Below, piece by piece: positions 12,220 through 64,000 of a DNA stretch of 64,000 nt (position 1 is its first letter; every line of letters begins with the position of its first letter). The position numbers were made by a program, and so were the translations under genes. Source of the stretch: Candidatus Magasanikiibacteriota bacterium (GTDB lineage Bacteria; Patescibacteriota; Patescibacteriia; Magasanikbacterales; 2-02-FULL-50-9b); contig CAITMK010000001.1 of the NCBI GenBank assembly GCA_903893485.1, forward strand, positions 46,560 to 110,559, in the 5' to 3' direction. The notes beneath the pieces are model-generated. The model saw only the letters and a program-made list of their open reading frames with translations, had not been told where the DNA came from and did not search any database.

Positions 12220-12260
12220 AACAACAGTATACCAAACAAATCGCCAAGCGAGTGAGAGTC

Positions 12261-12289
12261 TTGACAAAATATGCATTATGGTGTAGTCT
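12261..12289 (+). promoter_or_regulatory. Sigma70-like promoter for island A (TTGACA-N17-TAGTCT)
   Basis: An exact -35 hexamer and a 17-nt spacer are read directly. The -10 is weak. Confidence 0.4.
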
Positions 12290-12315
12290 CCTCCTTCCAA
12301 CACTGGAGGCCCACC

Positions 12316-12678
12316 ATGGGAAGGTTACACACACTCAGAGAAGCGCACGAAGCGGCGAAGAAACGTCTCGACGAAGTCTATGCCGAGGACGCGGCTGCGG
12401 CCGTCGAAATCCTGAAGGCAAAGGTTCCGGAGAGCTTGAGTCAGTGGAAAGAAAAGACAAAGCTCTTTCATTATCTGACGACAATCGGTGGCTTTACCGC
12501 CGAATACGAAACAGGTACCGCGGAAGACAGGTCGTTCCTCAAAGAACTGGGGTTCACAAACCTTCGCACCTTCACGAAGGCCCTGCAGACACTGAAGAAG
12601 GCCTGGGCCGGGGAGGTGGGTATCTGGATCACCCACCAATCCGGACGCCACATCACAGTCACGTTCTCCGCGATCTGA
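12316..12678 (+). CDS. Hypothetical protein, GC-rich island A
   Basis: 120 aa, MGRLHTLREAHEAAKKRLDEVYAED... A strong SD (GGAGG) lies 7 nt upstream, with a TTGACA-N17-TAGTCT promoter-like element further upstream. The GC content is clearly above the flanks. Confidence 0.6.
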   Translation: MGRLHTLREAHEAAKKRLDEVYAEDAAAAVEILKAKVPESLSQWKEKTKLFHYLTTIGGFTAEYETGTAEDRSFLKELGFTNLRTFTKALQTLKKAWAGEVGIWITHQSGRHITVTFSAI

Positions 12679-12717
12679 TCGCACGCCATGTCCCCAACCC
12701 GGACCTCTGGCGGTTTT

Positions 12718-13746
12718 TTATTTTATGAACATTCCATCTCCAAAACTGAAAAACCGATATTCGCGATTAATCGCGTCGGCATAAATTTTCTTTAAATGTT
12801 CCAACCCGCCTTCCCCTAAAAATGCACTGACGAGTAAAAGTAATGTCGATTTCGGCAAATGAAAATTCGTCACAAGTCCATCGATGATTTTAAATGTGTA
12901 GCCAGGGTTGATAAAAATATTTATGTCACCTTCGAATGATTCGCCTGCCAAAATTTTTTCAGCGGCACCTTCAAGCGCACGCGTCGTAGTGGTGCCAACA
13001 GCAATCACACGCCGACCCACTTTTTTCGCCTCCGCAATCGCTCCTGCAGTTTCACGATCGACACTTACCCACTCACTGTGCATTGGATGCGCTTCAACTT
13101 CTTCAGTTTTCACAGGCTGAAACGTACCAATCCCCACGTGCAGTGTAACTTCCAAAAATGTCACGCCCGATGCCTGAATCTTTGCACGTAAGTCCTCTGT
13201 GAAGTGAAATCCTGCGGTTGGAGCCGCGACAGATCCAGTATGACGCGCATACACGGTTTGATACTCACCAAGCGTTGTAGGGCCATTTTTCACGTAGGGC
13301 GGGAGCGGAATCTCGCCGTGTTCATTTGCGAAATCGATAACCTCGGCAGCTGACATTTTTTCACCGCCTCGTGAAAATTTCATTTCGAATTCACCATCTT
13401 CGTGGCGCACGGTAACCTCACCAATAACAGTACCGGGTAATTCAACCCGCATTCCAGGCTGCAACTTTTTTCCAGGCTTTCCAAGGCAGAGCCATGCCTC
13501 ACTCGATGGACGAAGCAATAAAATTTCAACCGTACCAACACGAAGTCGTGCGCGAAACACTTTTGTGTTATTAAAAACCAATACATCATCTGGGCGTAAA
13601 TATTTTACAATATCAAAAAATTGTTCGTGGCGTGTTTCCCCGCTTGTGCGATCCACAACCAACAACTTCGAATGATCACGCGGCTCTACAGATTTCTGCG
13701 CGATACGTTCGGTGGGTAAAAAATAATCAAGTTCAGAGGTTTTCAT
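12718..13746 (-). CDS. queA: S-adenosylmethionine:tRNA ribosyltransferase-isomerase
   Basis: 342 aa. YFLPTERIAQKSVEPRDHSKLLVVDR...PLPPYVKN...GTTTTRALE are QueA signatures. It is convergent with tgt. Confidence 0.9.
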   Translation of the reverse strand: MKTSELDYFLPTERIAQKSVEPRDHSKLLVVDRTSGETRHEQFFDIVKYLRPDDVLVFNNTKVFRARLRVGTVEILLLRPSSEAWLCLGKPGKKLQPGMRVELPGTVIGEVTVRHEDGEFEMKFSRGGEKMSAAEVIDFANEHGEIPLPPYVKNGPTTLGEYQTVYARHTGSVAAPTAGFHFTEDLRAKIQASGVTFLEVTLHVGIGTFQPVKTEEVEAHPMHSEWVSVDRETAGAIAEAKKVGRRVIAVGTTTTRALEGAAEKILAGESFEGDINIFINPGYTFKIIDGLVTNFHLPKSTLLLLVSAFLGEGGLEHLKKIYADAINREYRFFSFGDGMFIK

Positions 13747-16325: not shown

Positions 16326-17003
16326 TTACTTATCGCGCGCCGTGACGATTGCACGCTTGGCATGCCGCATCACGAATCGCAGGATGTGGCTTTCGTTCGG
16401 ATCAACGAGCGTTACCGCGAGGCCGACAAAGTGTGACAGCCGGCTTTCGATGTGGCACGGTACAAACTCAAACGAAACCGGAACACCGCGCGCAACCGCG
16501 TGCCCCACATACCGAATTCGTCGCTGACTTTCTCCAAGCGCCACCACCTCTGCACCAAGTTCGTACAGATGTGCAATGGCCGCGAATTCCTGTGAGCACG
16601 AAAACGCCCACATATCTTCAATGGGCCAACCATCGAAGGGCGTGATAATGTCGTCACTCATGAGCCCCGAATGGCCAAGTAAGTAATCCTTGCCTGACCA
16701 CGCGTAGGACTTACCGTTTCCATGATGATCGCCGCCCAAAAGCACGATTGCTTTGTAACCGCCTTCGTTGTACAGCTCCACGGCCCGATCGAGCAGCGCC
16801 TTGAATCGATCTTCAATTTCACCATCAGCGCTCACTTCTCGGCCGAGCACAACCAAGTATTTCCAACCAGCAAGCGGTGCGCCGGGCATCTCCCCCAGTT
16901 CTTCCAGTTGATCCAGCCGCCGTTCCAATCGCAGACTGTAAAAAACCCACTGTAAAAAGAAAGGTCCAAATACCACCAGAGCCGCAAATCCAAAATACTG
17001 CAT
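16326..17003 (-). CDS. DUF218/YdcF-like (SanA/ElyC family) protein, GC-rich island B
   Basis: YLVVLGREVSADGE...AIVLLGGDHHGNG fits the DUF218 core. An N-terminal TM helix is present. A strong SD (GAGGAGG) lies 6 nt upstream of the ATG at 17003. The GC content is about 58%. Confidence 0.55.
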   Translation of the reverse strand: MQYFGFAALVVFGPFFLQWVFYSLRLERRLDQLEELGEMPGAPLAGWKYLVVLGREVSADGEIEDRFKALLDRAVELYNEGGYKAIVLLGGDHHGNGKSYAWSGKDYLLGHSGLMSDDIITPFDGWPIEDMWAFSCSQEFAAIAHLYELGAEVVALGESQRRIRYVGHAVARGVPVSFEFVPCHIESRLSHFVGLAVTLVDPNESHILRFVMRHAKRAIVTARDK

Positions 17004-17038
17004 CGTTCGCCTCCTCGCCATTTCGGCAGGTTGCCAGA

Positions 17039-23539: not shown

Positions 23540-24091
23540 CTATTCCTCGATCGGCTCCGTGCCCATGAGAAGCAGGGTGCGGCGCAGCGGCTGCCGACTC
23601 TTCACGTAGCGGTTCAGCAGATCCCAGTGCGACGCGACAAAAGCCCGTGCAAGCCGTCCGTGGCTGAATGCCGCATTGGATTCAGCAAACACGCACGGGT
23701 AATAGGTCTGCCCGTCCTGCTGCCAGGCCGTACCAGGAAACACCAGCACCGTTGAATTGGTGTCGAGCCCCAGTTCGGCGGGCAACTGAGCCCCCGCTTG
23801 AAGATTCGCGAGCAGCTCGATAGCATGTTCGCGACCAGCAGCGCTCGGCGGCATGTCACGCGCAATGCGCTCTTCCAGCTTGCTCTGCGTGTTCCTGCTG
23901 CGCGCAATGCGCGTAGCGCTCAAACGCTGAGGACCGAACGGCCCCGCAACATCCCAAGCCAGACGACGTCCGTCGACTTTCGACTTGAAGATATGCTCCG
24001 CCTCTGCCAAAGCCACCGTTATCAGATATTTTTTCAATGCCGCATTTCCCACAAGGCCCCCCTTTGCCGCGCTGGTTGTAGCGCGGGACAA
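23540..24091 (-). CDS. Hypothetical protein, GC-rich island C
   Basis: About 170-183 aa with no recognisable domain. The ORF-track start is a TTG. The true start is probably the GTG just downstream, 4 nt after a GGGGGG run, because a CCGCGCT/AGCGCGG hairpin sits at the extreme 5' end. Confidence 0.5.
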   Translation of the reverse strand: MSRATTSAAKGGLVGNAALKKYLITVALAEAEHIFKSKVDGRRLAWDVAGPFGPQRLSATRIARSRNTQSKLEERIARDMPPSAAGREHAIELLANLQAGAQLPAELGLDTNSTVLVFPGTAWQQDGQTYYPCVFAESNAAFSHGRLARAFVASHWDLLNRYVKSRQPLRRTLLLMGTEPIEE

Positions 24092-26560: not shown

Positions 26561-27034
26561 TCAAAACGGCGCGGACTTTTCCCCGATGAAATTCATGAGG
26601 TCCTGCCCGATATCGGTCATGTCGGACTCGCTGAATCCAATGAGCCCTTTGGTAAAGCAGTCCTTGCCCGTCGTGTAAAGAAACCTCATCACGAGCGTAC
26701 GACGCTGACCTTCGAGTTCCACTGGGGTCGAGACAGTCAGCCAACACAGGATTTCCTGAATAGCGGTTCCGTAACGCTCAAAGTCGTCGATGGTCACCAC
26801 CTCTTCATTCAGCCTGACGAGCGGATCGAGCGCCCTGAATCCGGCGATGAGCGTCGGGATCATGGGATCATGGATCTCGCGGGGCATGCGAAATGGATTT
26901 GACTTATACTTCCGTTTCGGCGGATTGAGCGTGCGATCGACCATCCGTTGCAACGCTTCACAGGCACATGAAGCCGCATGAATCGCTCGCATATCGAGCG
27001 CAAGTCTAACCCCTACCAAATTTGTAGTACCCAT
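26561..27034 (-). CDS. Hypothetical protein, GC-rich island E
   Basis: 157 aa, MGTTNLVGVRLALDMRAIHAASCACEALQRMVDR... with no recognisable domain. SD GAGGTGA. GC-rich. Confidence 0.55.
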   Translation of the reverse strand: MGTTNLVGVRLALDMRAIHAASCACEALQRMVDRTLNPPKRKYKSNPFRMPREIHDPMIPTLIAGFRALDPLVRLNEEVVTIDDFERYGTAIQEILCWLTVSTPVELEGQRRTLVMRFLYTTGKDCFTKGLIGFSESDMTDIGQDLMNFIGEKSAPF

Positions 27035-28531: not shown

Positions 28532-28993
28532 TTACCACGGGTCCTCACCCCGCAGAAGCTTCGCTTTTCGATCATCCCGAGTCCTTTGCTGCCAGTCAAG
28601 CTTTGCTCTCCAGCGTGCCGGGTCAGCGTCCATTCGCTCTGCATACGTCAGCTGCCTCGGCACGTTTCGTTGCAAACGCAGCTCCTTAGAGGAGATGCCG
28701 ATGATGTGTGCAACATGGGCGATTGCGGTCATTTCGTCGGCAATATTTTCAAACTCCTTGTAGATTCTGACAACCGATCCGCCTGCACCACATGCCTGGC
28801 ATAGGTATTGATTTGACCTACGATTCACGCGGAATGAGGCGGTCTTCTCGGCGTGAAACGGGCAGATGAAAACGAGCGCTCGCGCATTTCGCCGCACTGG
28901 CAAATAGCCGAACGATTTGAGTGCCTTTTCAATTGGATATGCCAGAACTCGCCTCATGAGTTCTGGACTGAACATCATGTGACGCTTTGACAT
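28532..28993 (-). CDS. Stand-alone CHC2 zinc-finger protein (DnaG-primase-type Zn-binding domain), GC-rich island F
   Basis: CPFHAEKTASFRVNRRSNQYLCQACGAGG matches the CHC2 primase zinc-finger signature CPFHxEKTPSF...CFGCG. 153 aa. SD GGAG. GC-rich. Proteins of this kind are typical of phage and plasmid replication modules. Confidence 0.65.
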   Translation of the reverse strand: MSKRHMMFSPELMRRVLAYPIEKALKSFGYLPVRRNARALVFICPFHAEKTASFRVNRRSNQYLCQACGAGGSVVRIYKEFENIADEMTAIAHVAHIIGISSKELRLQRNVPRQLTYAERMDADPARWRAKLDWQQRTRDDRKAKLLRGEDPW

Positions 28994-35227: not shown

Positions 35228-35272
35228 TCATTCTTTAAATCATTTTGCAGTTTACCATTAAGCGCTATGTGT

Positions 35273-35320
35273 ACGCAAATAAAAACGCCGACGCATCGCC
35301 CCTCCCCAGGCAATGCGTCG
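35273..35320 (-). terminator. Rho-independent terminator closing the island G operon
   Basis: On the minus strand, CGACGCAT-N16-ATGCGTCG (8 bp) is followed by GCGTTTTTATTTG. Confidence 0.7.
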
Positions 35321-35334
35321 ACAAAGTTGTACCG

Positions 35335-35901
35335 CTACGTCGCTTCAGCCGAAAAGCCGAACTGCAACGCGGTCTGTTGTTGGTGCCACGGCTTCTTCAC
35401 GTCGTACATGGCAAGCGCTTGATGAAACGCATCGTCCAGCACCTTGTAGATCGGGTGATGAACGCTGCCGCCCACGACGTGCTCCTGCAGGAACTCCATC
35501 TGATCGATCAGCATCTCGGCGCGCAGATGCAAAAGCGCGAACAGGTCGTTGCCGCGAAACTCTGCGAGCTCCAGATACAGCAGATGCATGTACGCGAGGC
35601 CCGTTTTCTCATCCTCTTTCATCCAGCCCCACGCAAATTCCGTGCGCGCGATGACCTGACGGAACTTGGCCGGCACCGTGCACCGCACATACGGCACCGG
35701 CAAACCGGACGCCGTGTCGATGAGGTAGCCCGACGCCAACTTGGGCAGCAGATCCGGCGGGTCCAGCTCCGTGACGAGCAAAAAGCGATCTTGAAAACCG
35801 CCATGCGTGACGAACCGACGCCAGCCCGTGGTAGCGTGCAACCACCAGCGGCCAGGATCCACCACGACTTCAACATCTTGAACCAAATCTTGAGAACTCA
35901 T
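35335..35901 (-). CDS. Hypothetical protein (island G, gene 3 of 3)
   Basis: 188 aa. AGGAG lies 7 nt before the ATG. GC-rich (over 60% in places). No recognisable domain. Confidence 0.6.
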   Translation of the reverse strand: MSSQDLVQDVEVVVDPGRWWLHATTGWRRFVTHGGFQDRFLLVTELDPPDLLPKLASGYLIDTASGLPVPYVRCTVPAKFRQVIARTEFAWGWMKEDEKTGLAYMHLLYLELAEFRGNDLFALLHLRAEMLIDQMEFLQEHVVGGSVHHPIYKVLDDAFHQALAMYDVKKPWHQQQTALQFGFSAEAT

Positions 35902-36037
35902 TTAGAAACTCCTGAGCAAAGGTCAGCAGGTTTGCCGACAAGAAAAAAGGATACTCGTAAATCGCTCTTATGTCAATATAAAAAATATCGTCGCCAACCC
36001 AAGGTAGTGGGCCAGCGACGCGTAACCGCTCTAAATA

Positions 36038-36457
36038 TCAACTCGACGTTGGTGTGGGTTCATCCACCTCGATTCCGTTAGACGAAAGGTTCTCGACCAT
36101 CATCTGTAAAAATGCGATCGTGAGCAGCTGCTGAAGCATCATTCGTGCAACTATCCCAGTGAACTCATGAAGCTCCGCCTTCTGACGAACGATAAAGTCT
36201 TCATCAGAAAGCATCCGCAGCTGAATAGCCTTCCACTCATTGGCATCCAAAAGCGGTTGCAGCTGCTCCATCACCCCGAGCCCGGTCTCCGAATCCGGAA
36301 TCGCATATAACCGGTACTCGGTAAATTCCTGGTTACGAATCGCGATGTAGAACACTCCAACGAGATCCTTGAATTCATTGTAATCGAGCAGATGGCCAAT
36401 ATGACCGCATGTTTCAAGAACATACGCCGGCTTTGTGGCTGCGTCTGGTTTGCTCAT
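36038..36457 (-). CDS. Hypothetical protein (island G, gene 2 of 3)
   Basis: 139 aa. A perfect AGGAGG lies 6 nt before the ATG. No recognisable domain. Confidence 0.6.
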   Translation of the reverse strand: MSKPDAATKPAYVLETCGHIGHLLDYNEFKDLVGVFYIAIRNQEFTEYRLYAIPDSETGLGVMEQLQPLLDANEWKAIQLRMLSDEDFIVRQKAELHEFTGIVARMMLQQLLTIAFLQMMVENLSSNGIEVDEPTPTSS

Positions 36458-36467
36458 CGTGTACCTC

Positions 36468-36980
36468 CTACTTCTTCACAGCCAGAAACAAGCACAGCTC
36501 GCTCCAACCAATATTGTTGAATGAAATGTCCAACGCGCGGCCACCTGCGAGCTCGTCCAAAAACGCGTACCCCTTGAAACCGAGTATTTCCAGCTCTGTA
36601 CCGAGGCACACAACCGGGAACTGAAGTTGCATATTGCGATATTTCGCCGCAAACGCCAACAGCTCAAGCAGTGTCGCCGGTCGAAGCCCACATGCACCCA
36701 TCTCAAAAAGAGCTTCCTCGGCCGTAACAACCCGCCGAAAATAAATCACCTCGAACCGAATTGTACGCTGCCCGTACTCAAAGATGTGGCGCAGCACTTG
36801 TATGCGCGTAAATTCTGGATGCTTCCAGTCGAACGCTGCCGCCGCAATCAAATCCTTGAACAAAATCTCGTAGTCCATGCGCACCAGCGCACTTACTACC
36901 CTAAACGCCGTTGCAAGCGCGGCCGCTTTTTTTGCCAGCTTACCCAAGTCAACATCTCTCCAATCTTCAAATGTCGCCAT
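36468..36980 (-). CDS. Hypothetical protein (island G, gene 1 of 3)
   Basis: 170 aa from MATFEDWRDVD. GGGAGGG lies 4 nt before the ATG, and the stop is 10 nt before the start of gene 2. No recognisable domain. Confidence 0.6.
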   Translation of the reverse strand: MATFEDWRDVDLGKLAKKAAALATAFRVVSALVRMDYEILFKDLIAAAAFDWKHPEFTRIQVLRHIFEYGQRTIRFEVIYFRRVVTAEEALFEMGACGLRPATLLELLAFAAKYRNMQLQFPVVCLGTELEILGFKGYAFLDELAGGRALDISFNNIGWSELCLFLAVKK

Positions 36981-37007
36981 GATACCCTCCCAGAGTTTGG
37001 TACCCAA

Positions 37008-38387: not shown

Positions 38388-39066
38388 TCACTTCCTGAAC
38401 AAGGCCCGCAGCACGCTCAGCGAAAATTCGAATCGAATCACGCGCAAGTCGCCGTCCGCCAATTCAAGATGTTTCTTCATGGCGCTGTGCGAGGACATGG
38501 TCCGCGCCTGTTCGTAGACCTCAATCGCAGTACCCGGCGGAAACAGATTGATCTGATCGACCGAGGTAACACGCTGCGAAAACGCGGTCGGCGCCTCGCT
38601 GCCCGCTCCCTGCACCTCCACGAAATGCGTGTAGTGCTGACGAACACGTGTCTGACCACCAAACGGTGCCGCAATAACCCCATGCCCCTTTACTGGTAGC
38701 GCAAGCTCATGATACGGGCCGGAAGCGTCGGTAGCACCCGGCCGCAGTTGCTGCCGAAGCACCCAACGATGTTTGCCGCCGTCAACATCAGACCACCAGA
38801 TCACCAGCGTCGCGTCAGCCATGAGGCTGAGCACCGCGCGATCCCCTCTACGAATCGCGATGCCCGCGAGCAGTCCACCGGCGAACGGTGTCATGCACAC
38901 GACACCACTTTCCGGCGTAACGGACATACTTTCGCGACTAAGCCCGACGCTTTTCAGCGCTTGGATTGCAGGCAATGTCACCCGACCATCCAAGCACTCA
39001 AACAGCAGGTCTTTGGGTTTCTTCACAGATACCGGCGGCTCCTCGAGCCGAATGTCTGACTGGCAC
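38388..39066 (-). CDS. Hypothetical protein, GC-rich island H
   Basis: About 225 aa, MCQSDIRLEEPP... AGGAGG lies 6 nt before the ATG. GC-rich. No recognisable domain. Confidence 0.55.
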
Positions 39067-39094
39067 ATGGCCAACCTCCTTCGAAATGTGGTTT

Positions 39095-44309: not shown

Positions 44310-44936
44310 TTATCCCGCGGCGTGTGGCTCATCCACCAAAGAGACGGAAAACGGCAGCCACTGCGCAAGCGCGGCGCTCAGCTCAAGCCGAAACGCACCT
44401 TCGCCAATCATTCCGGACAATTCGATGAGTTTTCCATGCCAATTCACAAACGCCTGTACTTGTTCACGATCATGCACGTCGCTGAACTCGACACGAATCT
44501 TGTATAGAATCTGCGTTGGCCTCTGTCCACGGTTGTGTGCCACATGACACATTTGAAAATCCATTACTGGATCCACCGTGAAGATGCGCTGCATATCCCG
44601 CGAATGCACGCCTGGCGGCGGCACATAAACATCCAGCGACGGATAATACGGAAGCCACCAGAAACTGCGGTTCGGTGAAAGATCCTTTGGCAGAACAATA
44701 ACCAGTGTTCCACGCGCCTTGAGCCCGTCGGAGACGTGTGATGCAAGAAGAAAGCAGACTCCGGCAACGAGCAGCATGATCACTGTCGGTACTACTGCCG
44801 GAAAAAGTGGGTACGCCAACGCAAGCGCCACAAAGAGGATGCAGCCACCAGAAGAGTTCAGAAGATAAAGCAATCGCCGACTCGCAGGCGGAGCAACCTT
44901 CGCCAGACAAGGAAGTTTATTCGTAGAATCCGACAT
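44310..44936 (-). CDS. Hypothetical membrane protein, GC-rich island I
   Basis: About 208 aa from MSDSTNK, with two N-terminal TM helices. GGGAG lies 6 nt upstream. The ORF track extends to 44981. GC-rich. Confidence 0.5.
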   Translation of the reverse strand: MSDSTNKLPCLAKVAPPASRRLLYLLNSSGGCILFVALALAYPLFPAVVPTVIMLLVAGVCFLLASHVSDGLKARGTLVIVLPKDLSPNRSFWWLPYYPSLDVYVPPPGVHSRDMQRIFTVDPVMDFQMCHVAHNRGQRPTQILYKIRVEFSDVHDREQVQAFVNWHGKLIELSGMIGEGAFRLELSAALAQWLPFSVSLVDEPHAAG

Positions 44937-44985
44937 GACCGACTCCCATAGCTCACTTGGAGCACGTCCTTCATTGGACATTACA

Positions 44986-62210: not shown

Positions 62211-63362
62211 TTATGCCGCTTTTTCTTCTGTGTCTTCTGTTTTCTCTGCTTTTTCGGCATGTGTTGATTTTGCTTTTGGTTTTACACCAGGAACGCGAAG
62301 GCCCAAACGGTGCTCTTCTGAATCAATTGATACGATATCAAATTCGTATGTATCGCCGATTTTGAACTGCTTTGCAATGTCTTCGATTGTTTCGTTTGAA
62401 AGTTCAGAAACATGAGCCAAGCCCTGAATTTCTGGATCCAATTCTACGAACAAACCGTAAGGATTGATTTTAACGATTTTACCTTTGACCACCTGGCCAA
62501 CCTTATACTTATCATTAATAGTCTTCCAAGGGTCTGGAGTCAAGCGCTTCATTGAAAGGAAGATCTTTTTTCCGTCGATTTGGATGATTTCAGCCTTTAC
62601 CATGTCACCTAAGCGGACAACGTCCTTTGGATGATCAATGCGCTGCCATGCGAGCTCTGAAATGTGTACCAAGCCTTCAATGCCATCGAATTTAACGAAG
62701 GCGCCGAATGCGGTGATTGCAGAAACTTCGCCTTCTACGGTCATACCAACCTTATATTTGTCTGGTACTACGTTTTTAACTTCGTCTGCAATTGCTTTTT
62801 CAGAAACAATCAATTTTTCTTCTTTTTCGTTCACGTCGATTACCTTAACAGGTAAATCTTGGCCAACAAATTCTTTGAGTTTTTCAAGAATTTTGTTTTT
62901 GTCGCCACCAGCAACACGTGGATAATGATCCCCAGATAACTGAGAAACTGGCAAAAATGCGTCCATGCCGTCTAAATCAACCATGAGACCGCCTTTATTT
63001 GCTTCCTTAATACGAGCCATTACCGTAACGCCTGAGCGACGGAGTTCTTCCAATTTTGTCCAAACGCGGGCGTGGCCTGCGCTGCGGAATGAAAGTTCCA
63101 TTTCGCCGTTTTCGTTTTCAAGTTCGATAACTGTTGCTTCTACCTCTGAACCGTCCTTAAGGTTGCGGTATTCTGAGCTTTCAGCATAAAGTTCTGTGCC
63201 ACGGATCACACCAGTGCGGAGCCCCTCGATATTAATACGCACTTCGTTGCGGCCAACTGATAATACTGTTCCCTTCAAAATGTCGCCTACCTTTGGCACG
63301 TTGCCAAAATGTTCGTCCAGGAGTTTAGCGAAAACGCCCGTTTTTGTTGCTGTGTTAGTCAT
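62211..63362 (-). CDS. rpsA: 30S ribosomal protein S1 (four S1 domains)
   Basis: Repeated S1/OB motifs (GTVLSV...; GMTVEGEVSAITAFGAFVKF; GQVVKGKIVKINPYGLFVEL). The start is taken at MTNTATK; the ORF-track extension to 63539 runs through a terminator hairpin and a promoter. Confidence 0.85.
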   Translation of the reverse strand: MTNTATKTGVFAKLLDEHFGNVPKVGDILKGTVLSVGRNEVRINIEGLRTGVIRGTELYAESSEYRNLKDGSEVEATVIELENENGEMELSFRSAGHARVWTKLEELRRSGVTVMARIKEANKGGLMVDLDGMDAFLPVSQLSGDHYPRVAGGDKNKILEKLKEFVGQDLPVKVIDVNEKEEKLIVSEKAIADEVKNVVPDKYKVGMTVEGEVSAITAFGAFVKFDGIEGLVHISELAWQRIDHPKDVVRLGDMVKAEIIQIDGKKIFLSMKRLTPDPWKTINDKYKVGQVVKGKIVKINPYGLFVELDPEIQGLAHVSELSNETIEDIAKQFKIGDTYEFDIVSIDSEEHRLGLRVPGVKPKAKSTHAEKAEKTEDTEEKAA

Positions 63363-63378
63363 ATGAATTAGTGGATGG

Positions 63379-63407
63379 ATTGTAACAGAGTGAGGCCGGG
63401 GCGTCAA
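63379..63407 (-). promoter_or_regulatory. rpsA promoter (TTGACG-N17-TACAAT)
   Basis: Read on the minus strand, immediately after the island J terminator and 19 nt before the rpsA ATG. Confidence 0.6.
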
Positions 63408-63408
63408 C

Positions 63409-63464
63409 CCCCAAAAATAAAAGTGCGCGGAACCTGTAGACGGTGGTGTCTGCAGGTTCCGCGC
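63409..63464 (-). terminator. Rho-independent terminator for the island J mini-gene
   Basis: On the minus strand, the 17-bp stem GCGCGGAACCTGCAGAC / GUCUACAGGUUCCGCGC (one G-U pair) is followed by ACTTTTATTTTTGGGGG. Confidence 0.8.
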
Positions 63465-63489
63465 GGAGGGCGCGTGAGAGTTGTTCGGC

Positions 63490-63690
63490 TTAGCAGTAAG
63501 CCAAGCCGCGACCGCCGGGGCCGTGCCGCACGCGGTCAATGGCCACAGGATCGATCGGCTGACCAGGCGGCCGGCGATCAGCTGCGCGGAACGGATGCCG
63601 ATTCAGTGCCGCGCGTGCCAGCGGCAAATCAAGCGTCTTCAACTTAGCGCCGAGATAGCTGGGCTGTTGCCCGACTTGATTCTGATTCAT
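63490..63690 (-). CDS. Small hypothetical protein (about 66 aa), GC-rich island J
   Basis: MNQNQVGQQPSYLGAKLKTLDLPLARAALNRHPFRAADRRPPGQPIDPVAIDRVRHGPGGRGLAYC. The ORF is framed by GGAG-N6-ATG, a consensus-like promoter and a strong terminator. GC-rich. Confidence 0.5.
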   Translation of the reverse strand: MNQNQVGQQPSYLGAKLKTLDLPLARAALNRHPFRAADRRPPGQPIDPVAIDRVRHGPGGRGLAYC

Positions 63691-63734
63691 GATCATCTCC
63701 TTCAGCCCAATATTGACGGGCTTGCTTGCGACAC

Positions 63735-63763
63735 ATTAAAGCACAATAAACACATTTTGTCAA
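63735..63763 (-). promoter_or_regulatory. Sigma70-like promoter for island J (TTGACA-N17-TTTAAT, with an extended-10 TGc)
   Basis: Read on the minus strand, 8 nt after the stop of the upstream GC-rich ORF. Confidence 0.55.
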
Positions 63764-63770
63764 CCCTGAA

Positions 63771-63998
63771 TTAGCGCCTCAGGGCATCCAAAACCGAACG
63801 AAATTCTGCCGGCAGCGCTGGATACTGTTCCAACGTTTGCTTAATCAAGACAACACTTTGAGTTGCCGTACACCAGGCGGCGGAACCTCGCGCCAAGAGC
63901 TGACACGAAATCGACCGCGGCAACACGTCGGTTTCCTTATGGAAAAACAGCAGGCTCCACTCGGTCTGAACCGAAAAAACCATATTACGAAGAACCAT
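63771..63998 (-). CDS. GC-rich hypothetical ORF at the window edge; it may extend past the right edge of the window
   Basis: ...LPRSISCQLLARGSAAWCTATQSVVLIKQTLEQYPALPAEFRSVLDALRR* with the stop at 63771. The true start is unknown because of the window edge. Confidence 0.35.
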   Translation of the reverse strand: MVLRNMVFSVQTEWSLLFFHKETDVLPRSISCQLLARGSAAWCTATQSVVLIKQTLEQYPALPAEFRSVLDALRR

Positions 63999-64000
63999 TT

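Follow-up and report, generated by a model that had tools for sequence, protein, structure and literature searches.

Island J lies near the end of a 64-kb stretch of DNA (the window) from Candidatus Magasanikiibacteriota, a group of the Patescibacteria or Candidate Phyla Radiation (CPR). It comprises a promoter, a small open reading frame (ORF) of 66 codons, and a terminator, and it sits between the end of a gene for a 145-amino-acid (aa) orphan protein and rpsA, the gene for ribosomal protein S1. The 66-aa unit and rpsA are all on the minus strand, and coordinates are given in the numbering of the window. We consider it likely, from the sequence comparisons below, that Island J is a real gene, expressed on its own, whose product is a strongly basic protein, and that it is the second gene of a two-gene cassette in the slot between a Lactamase_B_3-family gene and rpsA.

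A sequence-only reading of this DNA had described a TTGACA-N17-TTTAAT promoter with an extended -10 element, a GGAG-N6-ATG start leading into a GC-rich 66-aa ORF, a terminator with a 17-bp stem, and a TTGACG-N17-TACAAT promoter of rpsA directly after the terminator. Each of these was found in place (Table 1). With its hexamers 17 nt apart and a TG ahead of the -10, the small-gene promoter would be classed as a sigma-70-type promoter of the extended -10 kind. The pattern TTGACA-N14-TGN-TWTAAT, allowing at most one mismatch, has a single match in the 64-kb window, which is this promoter, against 0.06 expected by chance. A generic promoter scan missed it because the scan demands an A at the second position of the -10 hexamer, which TTTAAT does not have. 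The terminator arms form an inverted repeat that is 94% complementary, with one C/A mismatch, and the hairpin has a folding energy of about -31 kcal/mol (z = -6.3 versus shuffles). A GC-rich stem-loop followed by the U-rich tract AC-UUUUAUUUUU is what characterizes a putative intrinsic, or Rho-independent, terminator. Between the stop codon of the ORF and the terminator stem there are 25 nt. The terminator ends 17 nt ahead of the rpsA -35 hexamer, and its tail is followed by GGGGG and then the rpsA promoter.

Gene callers list the 66-aa ORF on seven contigs. The contigs that encode the exact protein are 100% identical in DNA and represent the same strain recovered in several samples. Two contigs, L002 and L003, on which a 186-aa ORF was called and no 66-aa ORF, were considered as a possible strain variant and rejected as such, the DNA being 100% identical and the difference one of gene calling only; more generally, the 66-aa gene was called on some identical contigs and not on others. 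A word-indexed search of 5.8 billion proteins, made with the single sequence and with a two-sequence profile, yielded nothing outside the query's own cluster except one protein, P0002. When 1.84 billion cluster representatives were searched exhaustively with HMMER, exactly one further relative appeared, which was again P0002 (64 aa, E = 1e-13). This protein is 67% identical to the 66-aa protein over the matched stretch (59 to 67% amino acid identity for its lineage) and is encoded on a 740-bp contig, L089, from sample ERZ27271896, directly 3' of a homolog of the 145-aa gene. Back-translated peptide patterns turned up no relatives in JGI metagenome and IMG/VR contigs, and four metagenome matches to a DNA pattern made of the conserved 5' stem and the Shine-Dalgarno (SD) sequence were set aside as chance, since they lay in unrelated coding context. 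The 66-aa protein belongs to an undescribed family, with two known lineages, that is restricted to a narrow clade of Magasanikiibacteriota.

The alignment of the window with L089 carries most of the evidence for coding. Both promoter hexamers are identical and the spacer between them has diverged; likewise, the 6-bp stem at the 5' end of the transcript is identical and its 7-nt loop has diverged. The GGAG-N6-start arrangement is kept with ATG in one lineage and GTG in the other, the stop codons align as TAA and TAG, and the sole indel, of 6 nt, leaves the frame intact. The diverged homolog therefore keeps the frame, the start, the stop, and the ribosome-binding site, with indels in multiples of three, as befits a coding sequence. 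A second in-frame ATG, at 63696, adjoins the GGAG and is not kept in the homolog. Differences at codon positions 1, 2, and 3 number 15, 21, and 34, respectively, a third-position excess with a binomial p of 0.006. The Nei-Gojobori ratio of nonsynonymous to synonymous substitution (dN/dS) for this pair is 0.34 in the frame of the ORF, compared to 2.7 and 1.2 in the other sense frames. An antisense frame that is open in both lineages gave a dN/dS of 1.5. The other antisense frame of interest has a dN/dS of 0.33, and it cannot be coding because stop codons interrupt it in both lineages. When the same substitutions were placed at random, 24.5 +/- 2.7 identical residues remained, compared to the 37 observed, and none of 20,000 simulations reached 37. 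The 66-aa ORF is thus very probably a real protein-coding gene, and the proposal of the sequence-only reading, which had leaned on the expression signals, now has comparative evidence behind it (the dN/dS and the kept start, stop, and in-frame indel), all of it from one sequence pair.

Table 1. Features of Island J, its surroundings, and the corresponding loci in other contigs
Feature	Position	Strand	Details
145-aa orphan gene, 3' end	63771..64000	-	Last 75 codons and stop; first gene of the cassette; full gene at L002:2312-2749
Small-gene promoter	63735..63763	-	-35 TTGACA 63763-63758, 17-nt spacer, TG 63743-63742, -10 TTTAAT 63740-63735
5' stem-loop of the transcript	63704..63722	-	AGCCCG / UGGGCU, 6-bp stem, 7-nt loop, directly 5' of the SD
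Shine-Dalgarno GGAG	63697..63700	-	6 nt ahead of the start codon
66-aa ORF	63490..63690	-	ATG 63690-63688, 66 codons and TAA (63492-63490), GC 0.632
10-mer GTTCCGCGCA, copy in ORF	63583-63592		L002:2928-2937
10-mer GTTCCGCGCA, copy in terminator	63425-63434		L002:3087-3096
Putative intrinsic terminator	63413..63464	-	Arms 63464-63448 and 63441-63425, 17 nt each, 6-nt loop, tail AC-TTTTATTTTT (63422-63413)
rpsA promoter	63379..63407	-	TTGACG 63407-63402, N17, TACAAT 63384-63379, TG; not part of the cassette
rpsA (ribosomal protein S1, 383 aa)	62211..63362	-	Four S1 domains, E = 4e-55; 82% identity to L009
Strongest GC island in the window	63371-63710		Maximum 0.70 (150-nt windows) vs mean 0.458
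Lactamase_B_3 gene	L002:1573-2196		Called as 189 or 238 aa
Alternative call for the 145-aa gene	L002:2189-2749		186 aa
128-aa ORF in the L009 slot	L009:3366-3752	-
187-aa ORF in the L009 slot	L009:2634-3197
rpsA promoter region of L009	L009:3957-4003		TTGACT-N17-TAAACT-ccttctacttattcat-ATG
Slot examples with cargo	L070:2401-3986, L042:2694-3971, L031:832-3971, L080:420-3971		Lactamase_B_3/rpsA gap, L009-L088
rpsA leader RNA examples	L037:3920-3997, L086:3923-4000, L081:3886-3964		And 49 further loci
Other GC-rich island ORFs	12252-12728, 16326-17021, 23540-24091, 26561-27034, 28532-28993, 35245-36081, 36038-37007, 38388-39074, 44310-44981

An alternative that we regard as unlikely is that the ORF is spurious, with Island J being either noncoding GC-rich DNA of foreign origin or a gene for a small regulatory RNA, and the open frame a by-product of GC-richness. 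Long ORFs arise by chance in GC-rich DNA, where stop codons are rare, and three ORFs of 68 to 97 aa overlap at this locus on both strands, among them the antisense frame that stays open in both lineages. The search of 1.84 billion representatives gave one nonidentical homolog, and the AlphaFold confidence of the product is low. The whole transcript, from promoter to terminator, also folds better than chance (z = -4.1). That value is due to the terminator alone, however; without the terminator, z is -0.9 for the window and -0.06 for L089, and no compensatory pairs were seen between the two transcript bodies. Rfam 15 gave no gathering-threshold match anywhere in the window and no relevant match at the locus even at E = 10, where the best (E = 0.39) was an unrelated small RNA, and ARAGORN found no tRNA or tmRNA gene in the window. 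A spurious frame would also not be expected to show the low dN/dS, the third-position excess, and the in-frame indel, nor to keep its SD spacing, start, and stop in the diverged homolog. The plus-strand ORF of 97 aa had been entertained as the gene in its place, its GC pattern at third codon positions (GC3) having first looked more gene-like, and was rejected for its dN/dS of 1.5 and for having no expression signals on the plus strand.

Several points nevertheless weigh against reading Island J as a gene in an inserted cassette. Besides the overlapping ORFs just described, the argument for coding comes from a single pairwise comparison, as two lineages are known and the other contigs are 98 to 100% identical. 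The L089 contig stops before its terminator, so that the comparison reaches the end of the small gene and not rpsA. The -10 hexamer of the small gene does not have the canonical A at position 2. No insertion scars, terminal repeats, or target duplications were found around the cassette. Both AlphaFold2 models are of low confidence, and no fold can be assigned. Neither protein has a match in Pfam, NCBIfam, PADLOC (E <= 10), or PHROGs, or a credible match in the PDB. A functional link between the two proteins is speculative, being drawn from their adjacency and coinheritance.

The 145-aa gene runs past the end of the window at 64000, and the identical contigs L002 and L003 extend beyond it. It has a TTGACA promoter and a GGGGAG ribosome-binding site of its own, and the 66-aa gene is co-oriented with it, 80 nt downstream. 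The two genes are coinherited in both known lineages, as 145 and 66 aa in the window and as a partial 143 aa and 64 aa in L089. The 145-aa protein shows 65% amino acid identity between the lineages, with a dN/dS of 0.19 at a dS similar to that of the 66-aa gene. A word-indexed search of the 5.8 billion proteins with the 145-aa protein found its own cluster only. There is thus a lineage-specific cassette of about 0.9 kb, foreign in composition, that contains two genes, and Island J is its distal half. The sequence-only reading had described a minimal inserted unit; the inserted and self-contained nature of the unit holds up, but it is not an isolated insertion, being the 3' half of a cassette shared with the 145-aa orphan gene. 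Gene calls on identical DNA disagree in this region. The upstream orphan is called as either 145 or 186 aa, and it is the 145-aa start that the promoter and the GGGGAG site accompany. The two lengths called for the Lactamase_B_3 gene (Table 1) can be set beside the comparison with L009, the closest species-level relative, which indicates a 207-aa product starting with MHISWLGQS.

A set of 80 related species served for comparison. In S1, L009 is 82% identical to the window and the others are about 55 to 62% identical. Neither DNA nor protein similarity to Island J was found near rpsA in any of the 80 species, and no relatives of the 145-aa and 66-aa proteins were found in them. A Lactamase_B_3-family gene divergent from rpsA is kept in 52 of the 80. 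The gap between the two genes measures 175 to 391 bp in 25 of these 52 and 0.5 to 3.5 kb in the other 27; in the lineage of the window, it is 961 bp long and holds the two co-oriented genes. The cargo of the larger gaps is diverse and includes two reverse transcriptases, an rve-type transposase, a RelB/YafQ toxin-antitoxin pair, and a DUF559 endonuclease, along with a GNAT acetyltransferase, protein kinases, methyltransferases, and orphans. The L009 slot holds an unrelated 128-aa ORF on the reverse strand and a 187-aa ORF, neither of which gave a Pfam match or showed similarity to the cassette of the window. The ancestral divergent gap is thus about 175 to 391 bp, and among the Magasanikiibacteriota the slot is a hot spot for insertions. 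The proposal that the unit is inserted relative to related genomes, which was to be judged by comparing rpsA upstream regions, is borne out by its absence from all 80 species and by the length of the gap. The cassette was also considered as an insertion sequence, a miniature inverted-repeat transposable element, or an autonomous mobile element, and these were rejected, as it has no terminal repeats, no transposase domain or integrase, and no further copies in the window.

The composition of the cassette sets it apart from its flanks. The strongest GC island of the window covers most of Island J (Table 1). GC3 is 0.55 in the 145-aa gene and 0.66 in the 66-aa gene, compared to 0.39 to 0.40 in the flanking Lactamase_B_3 gene and rpsA, and the L089 copies are richer still (0.62 and 0.74, respectively). 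The description of the small protein gene as GC-rich is accurate, with a qualification: about half of the GC-richness comes from amino acid composition, 47% of the residues being Gly, Ala, Arg, or Pro, and the elevated GC3 accounts for more.

Elsewhere in the window there are other GC-rich islands with ORFs (Table 1), most of which have a GC3 of 0.54 to 0.67, versus 0.27 to 0.45 for core genes. The ORF at 12252-12728 was counted for its overall GC of 0.54, its GC3 being 0.46. No Pfam family was found for 9 of the 10 GC-rich ORFs tested, the exception being a DnaG-type zinc ribbon at 28532-28993, and none of these island ORFs resembles Island J in sequence. Together they may form a reservoir of orphan or acquired genes.

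The 66-aa product has an isoelectric point (pI) of 10.8, a net charge of about +6, and a grand average of hydropathy of -0.64. Its conserved blocks are YLGAKL-x2-LDLPLARAAL, PIDP, and RV-x-HGPGGRG, and the first 10 or so residues vary. AlphaFold2 places four short helices at residues 12 to 19, 22 to 30, 33 to 37, and 48 to 56, followed by an unstructured C-terminal tail, with a predicted local distance difference test score (pLDDT) of 58; the 145-aa protein is predicted to be all-helical, with a pLDDT of 43. A blastn comparison of Island J with plasmids and phages gave no match, and tblastn with both proteins against phage and plasmid collections gave one match, at chance level. A type I toxin was considered and rejected on the hydropathy and pI of the protein, which has no hydrophobic segment. 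One can speculate that the 66-aa protein is a nucleic acid-binding or partner-binding component that works with the coinherited 145-aa protein.

A more specific proposal, which we think improbable, is that the two proteins form a toxin-antitoxin or antiphage defense module, in which the small basic protein would serve as antitoxin or regulator and would be made in excess from its own internal promoter. Such a module would be expected to have two small, co-oriented genes that are inherited together, as these are in two lineages; the additional strong promoter ahead of the distal gene and the single terminator for both genes would also suit it, as would the patchy distribution and foreign composition of the cassette, and one relative has a bona fide RelB/YafQ pair in the same slot. 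The databases argue otherwise: neither protein matches a Pfam, NCBIfam, or PADLOC model at E = 10, there is no credible PDB sequence match or assignable fold, and the small protein contains no recognizable DNA-binding domain. The architecture of the cassette, in which the large gene comes first and an internal promoter lies in the 80-nt gap, is also atypical of most type II systems.

The position of Island J directly 5' of rpsA on the same strand raises another possibility, that the unit regulates rpsA, either as a leader peptide and terminator forming an attenuator or as a long structured leader through which S1 regulates itself. The terminator ends just before the rpsA -35 hexamer, and 10 nt of its 3' arm, GTTCCGCGCA, recur inside the ORF, where they could pair with the 5' arm as an antiterminator. 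We judge this very unlikely. An attenuator of the leader-peptide type requires that there be no promoter between leader and gene, and rpsA has its own promoter, with 10 of 12 consensus matches, past the terminator; the attenuator was rejected on this ground. An ORF of 66 codons whose protein appears to be under purifying selection, and whose stop codon lies 25 nt short of the terminator stem, also does not fit a leader peptide. The GTTCCGCGCA repeat is not kept in L089, and a 10-mer repeat in such a GC-rich stretch is near chance, with about 0.2 expected by our estimate.

Comparison with L009 speaks to the age of the rpsA promoter. The window reads TTGACG-N17-TACAAT-ccatccactaattcat-ATG, with 16 nt and no SD between the -10 and the ATG, and in L009, which does not have the cassette, an equivalent sigma-70-like promoter with a short leader, again of 16 nt and without an SD, is found almost equally far from the ATG (Table 1). 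The rpsA promoter thus predates the cassette and, as the sequence-only reading had supposed, was not disrupted. By the same comparison, we infer that the rpsA mRNA in the clade of the window and L009 would have a very short, SD-less leader and be nearly leaderless.

The leader form of this proposal meets a further obstacle, as rpsA in related species has a leader of another kind. In 52 of the 80 Magasanikiibacteriota or related species, rpsA is directly preceded by an RNA of about 78 nt that forms two hairpins, with the layout AAGC-stem-CC(A/G)AUUUAGUGG-stem-CACUC-hairpin-AAGGGAUAAGCAG-U7. It covaries strongly: in the alignment, pairing holds for 96.8% of cells, and compensatory changes occur at 14 of the 16 pairs. 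The covariation score is 0.61, whereas shuffles give 0.22 and slid controls no more than 0.18. A covariance model of this leader, R1, matched the 52 relatives at E <= 5e-5 and had no match in L009 or in the window, where the best hit with filters off was 5 bits (E = 3.4). A search of Rfam with L037, the sole locus tested, returned no match. The clade of the window and L009 has lost the structured rpsA leader, and the RNA, apparently undescribed, is a candidate S1 autoregulatory element. Had relatives carried the sequence of Island J as a conserved, ORF-free rpsA leader, the case for a gene would have suffered; the leader that they do carry differs in sequence and matches nothing in the window.

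Taken as a gene in a cassette, Island J would work as follows. The extended -10 promoter of sigma-70 type, right after the stop of the 145-aa gene, would start a transcript near 63728. The 6-bp stem-loop before the GGAG, conserved in both lineages, is probably an mRNA stabilizer or a site for a regulator to bind. Translation would begin at the ATG at 63690, a start suggested by the kept start and stop, the in-frame indel, and a dN/dS below 1. The hairpin and U-tract would then end both the small-gene transcript and read-through from the 145-aa gene, that is, the transcripts of both cassette promoters, 6 nt ahead of the rpsA -35, and would insulate the promoter of the essential rpsA gene. More speculatively, the protein, with short helices predicted in its N-terminal two-thirds and the conserved HGPGGRG near its C terminus, would most likely work together with the 145-aa protein, for instance as a nucleic acid-binding or partner-neutralizing part of a two-component accessory module. 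The GC3 values of the two genes relative to those of the flanking core genes suggest that the cassette was acquired from a GC-richer donor. We give scarcely any weight to the idea that the 66-aa protein, alone or with its 145-aa partner, is a novel factor of this lineage that targets the ribosome, S1, or the expression of rpsA. This would make the position beside rpsA functional, the factor having been recruited in a clade without the ancestral leader and with a nearly leaderless, SD-less rpsA mRNA.

These results add one well-supported small-protein family to a CPR genome, an outcome that would not surprise a specialist. They also illustrate that one diverged homolog can serve to test whether a GC-rich island with a full set of expression signals is coding, and that a strong terminator appears to protect an essential ribosomal gene from the cargo inserted ahead of it. 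The biological importance is modest unless the 66-aa protein turns out to have a role at the ribosome or in defense. The leader RNA of the relatives may matter more than the 66-aa gene, S1 autoregulation being uncharted in this phylum.

Species-specific orphan genes tend to be short, to encode disordered products, and to evolve under purifying selection; they usually match the GC content of their genome, and de novo candidates are usually lower (PMC11293555). The 66-aa gene resembles them in being short and basic, in its largely disordered predicted structure, in having no homologs outside a narrow clade, and in its apparent purifying selection. It differs from them in its GC content of 0.63 and GC3 of 0.66, versus 0.46 and about 0.40 for the genome, and in its unusually complete expression signals. 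As in an integration hot spot, the Lactamase_B_3/rpsA slot has conserved flanks and content that differs between species, whereas the cassette differs from hot-spot cargo in having no integrase, no tRNA target, and no direct or inverted repeats at its ends. The rpsA leader R1 of other Magasanikiibacteriota shares with Island J its place directly 5' of rpsA on the same strand and has no similarity to it in sequence or structure. Island J appears to encode a protein, and its transcript body folds no better than shuffles. A stable GC-rich hairpin and U-tract before an independent promoter is a classic arrangement against promoter occlusion, and the terminator of Island J, with just such a hairpin and tract right before the rpsA promoter, is on its sequence a likely example of it.

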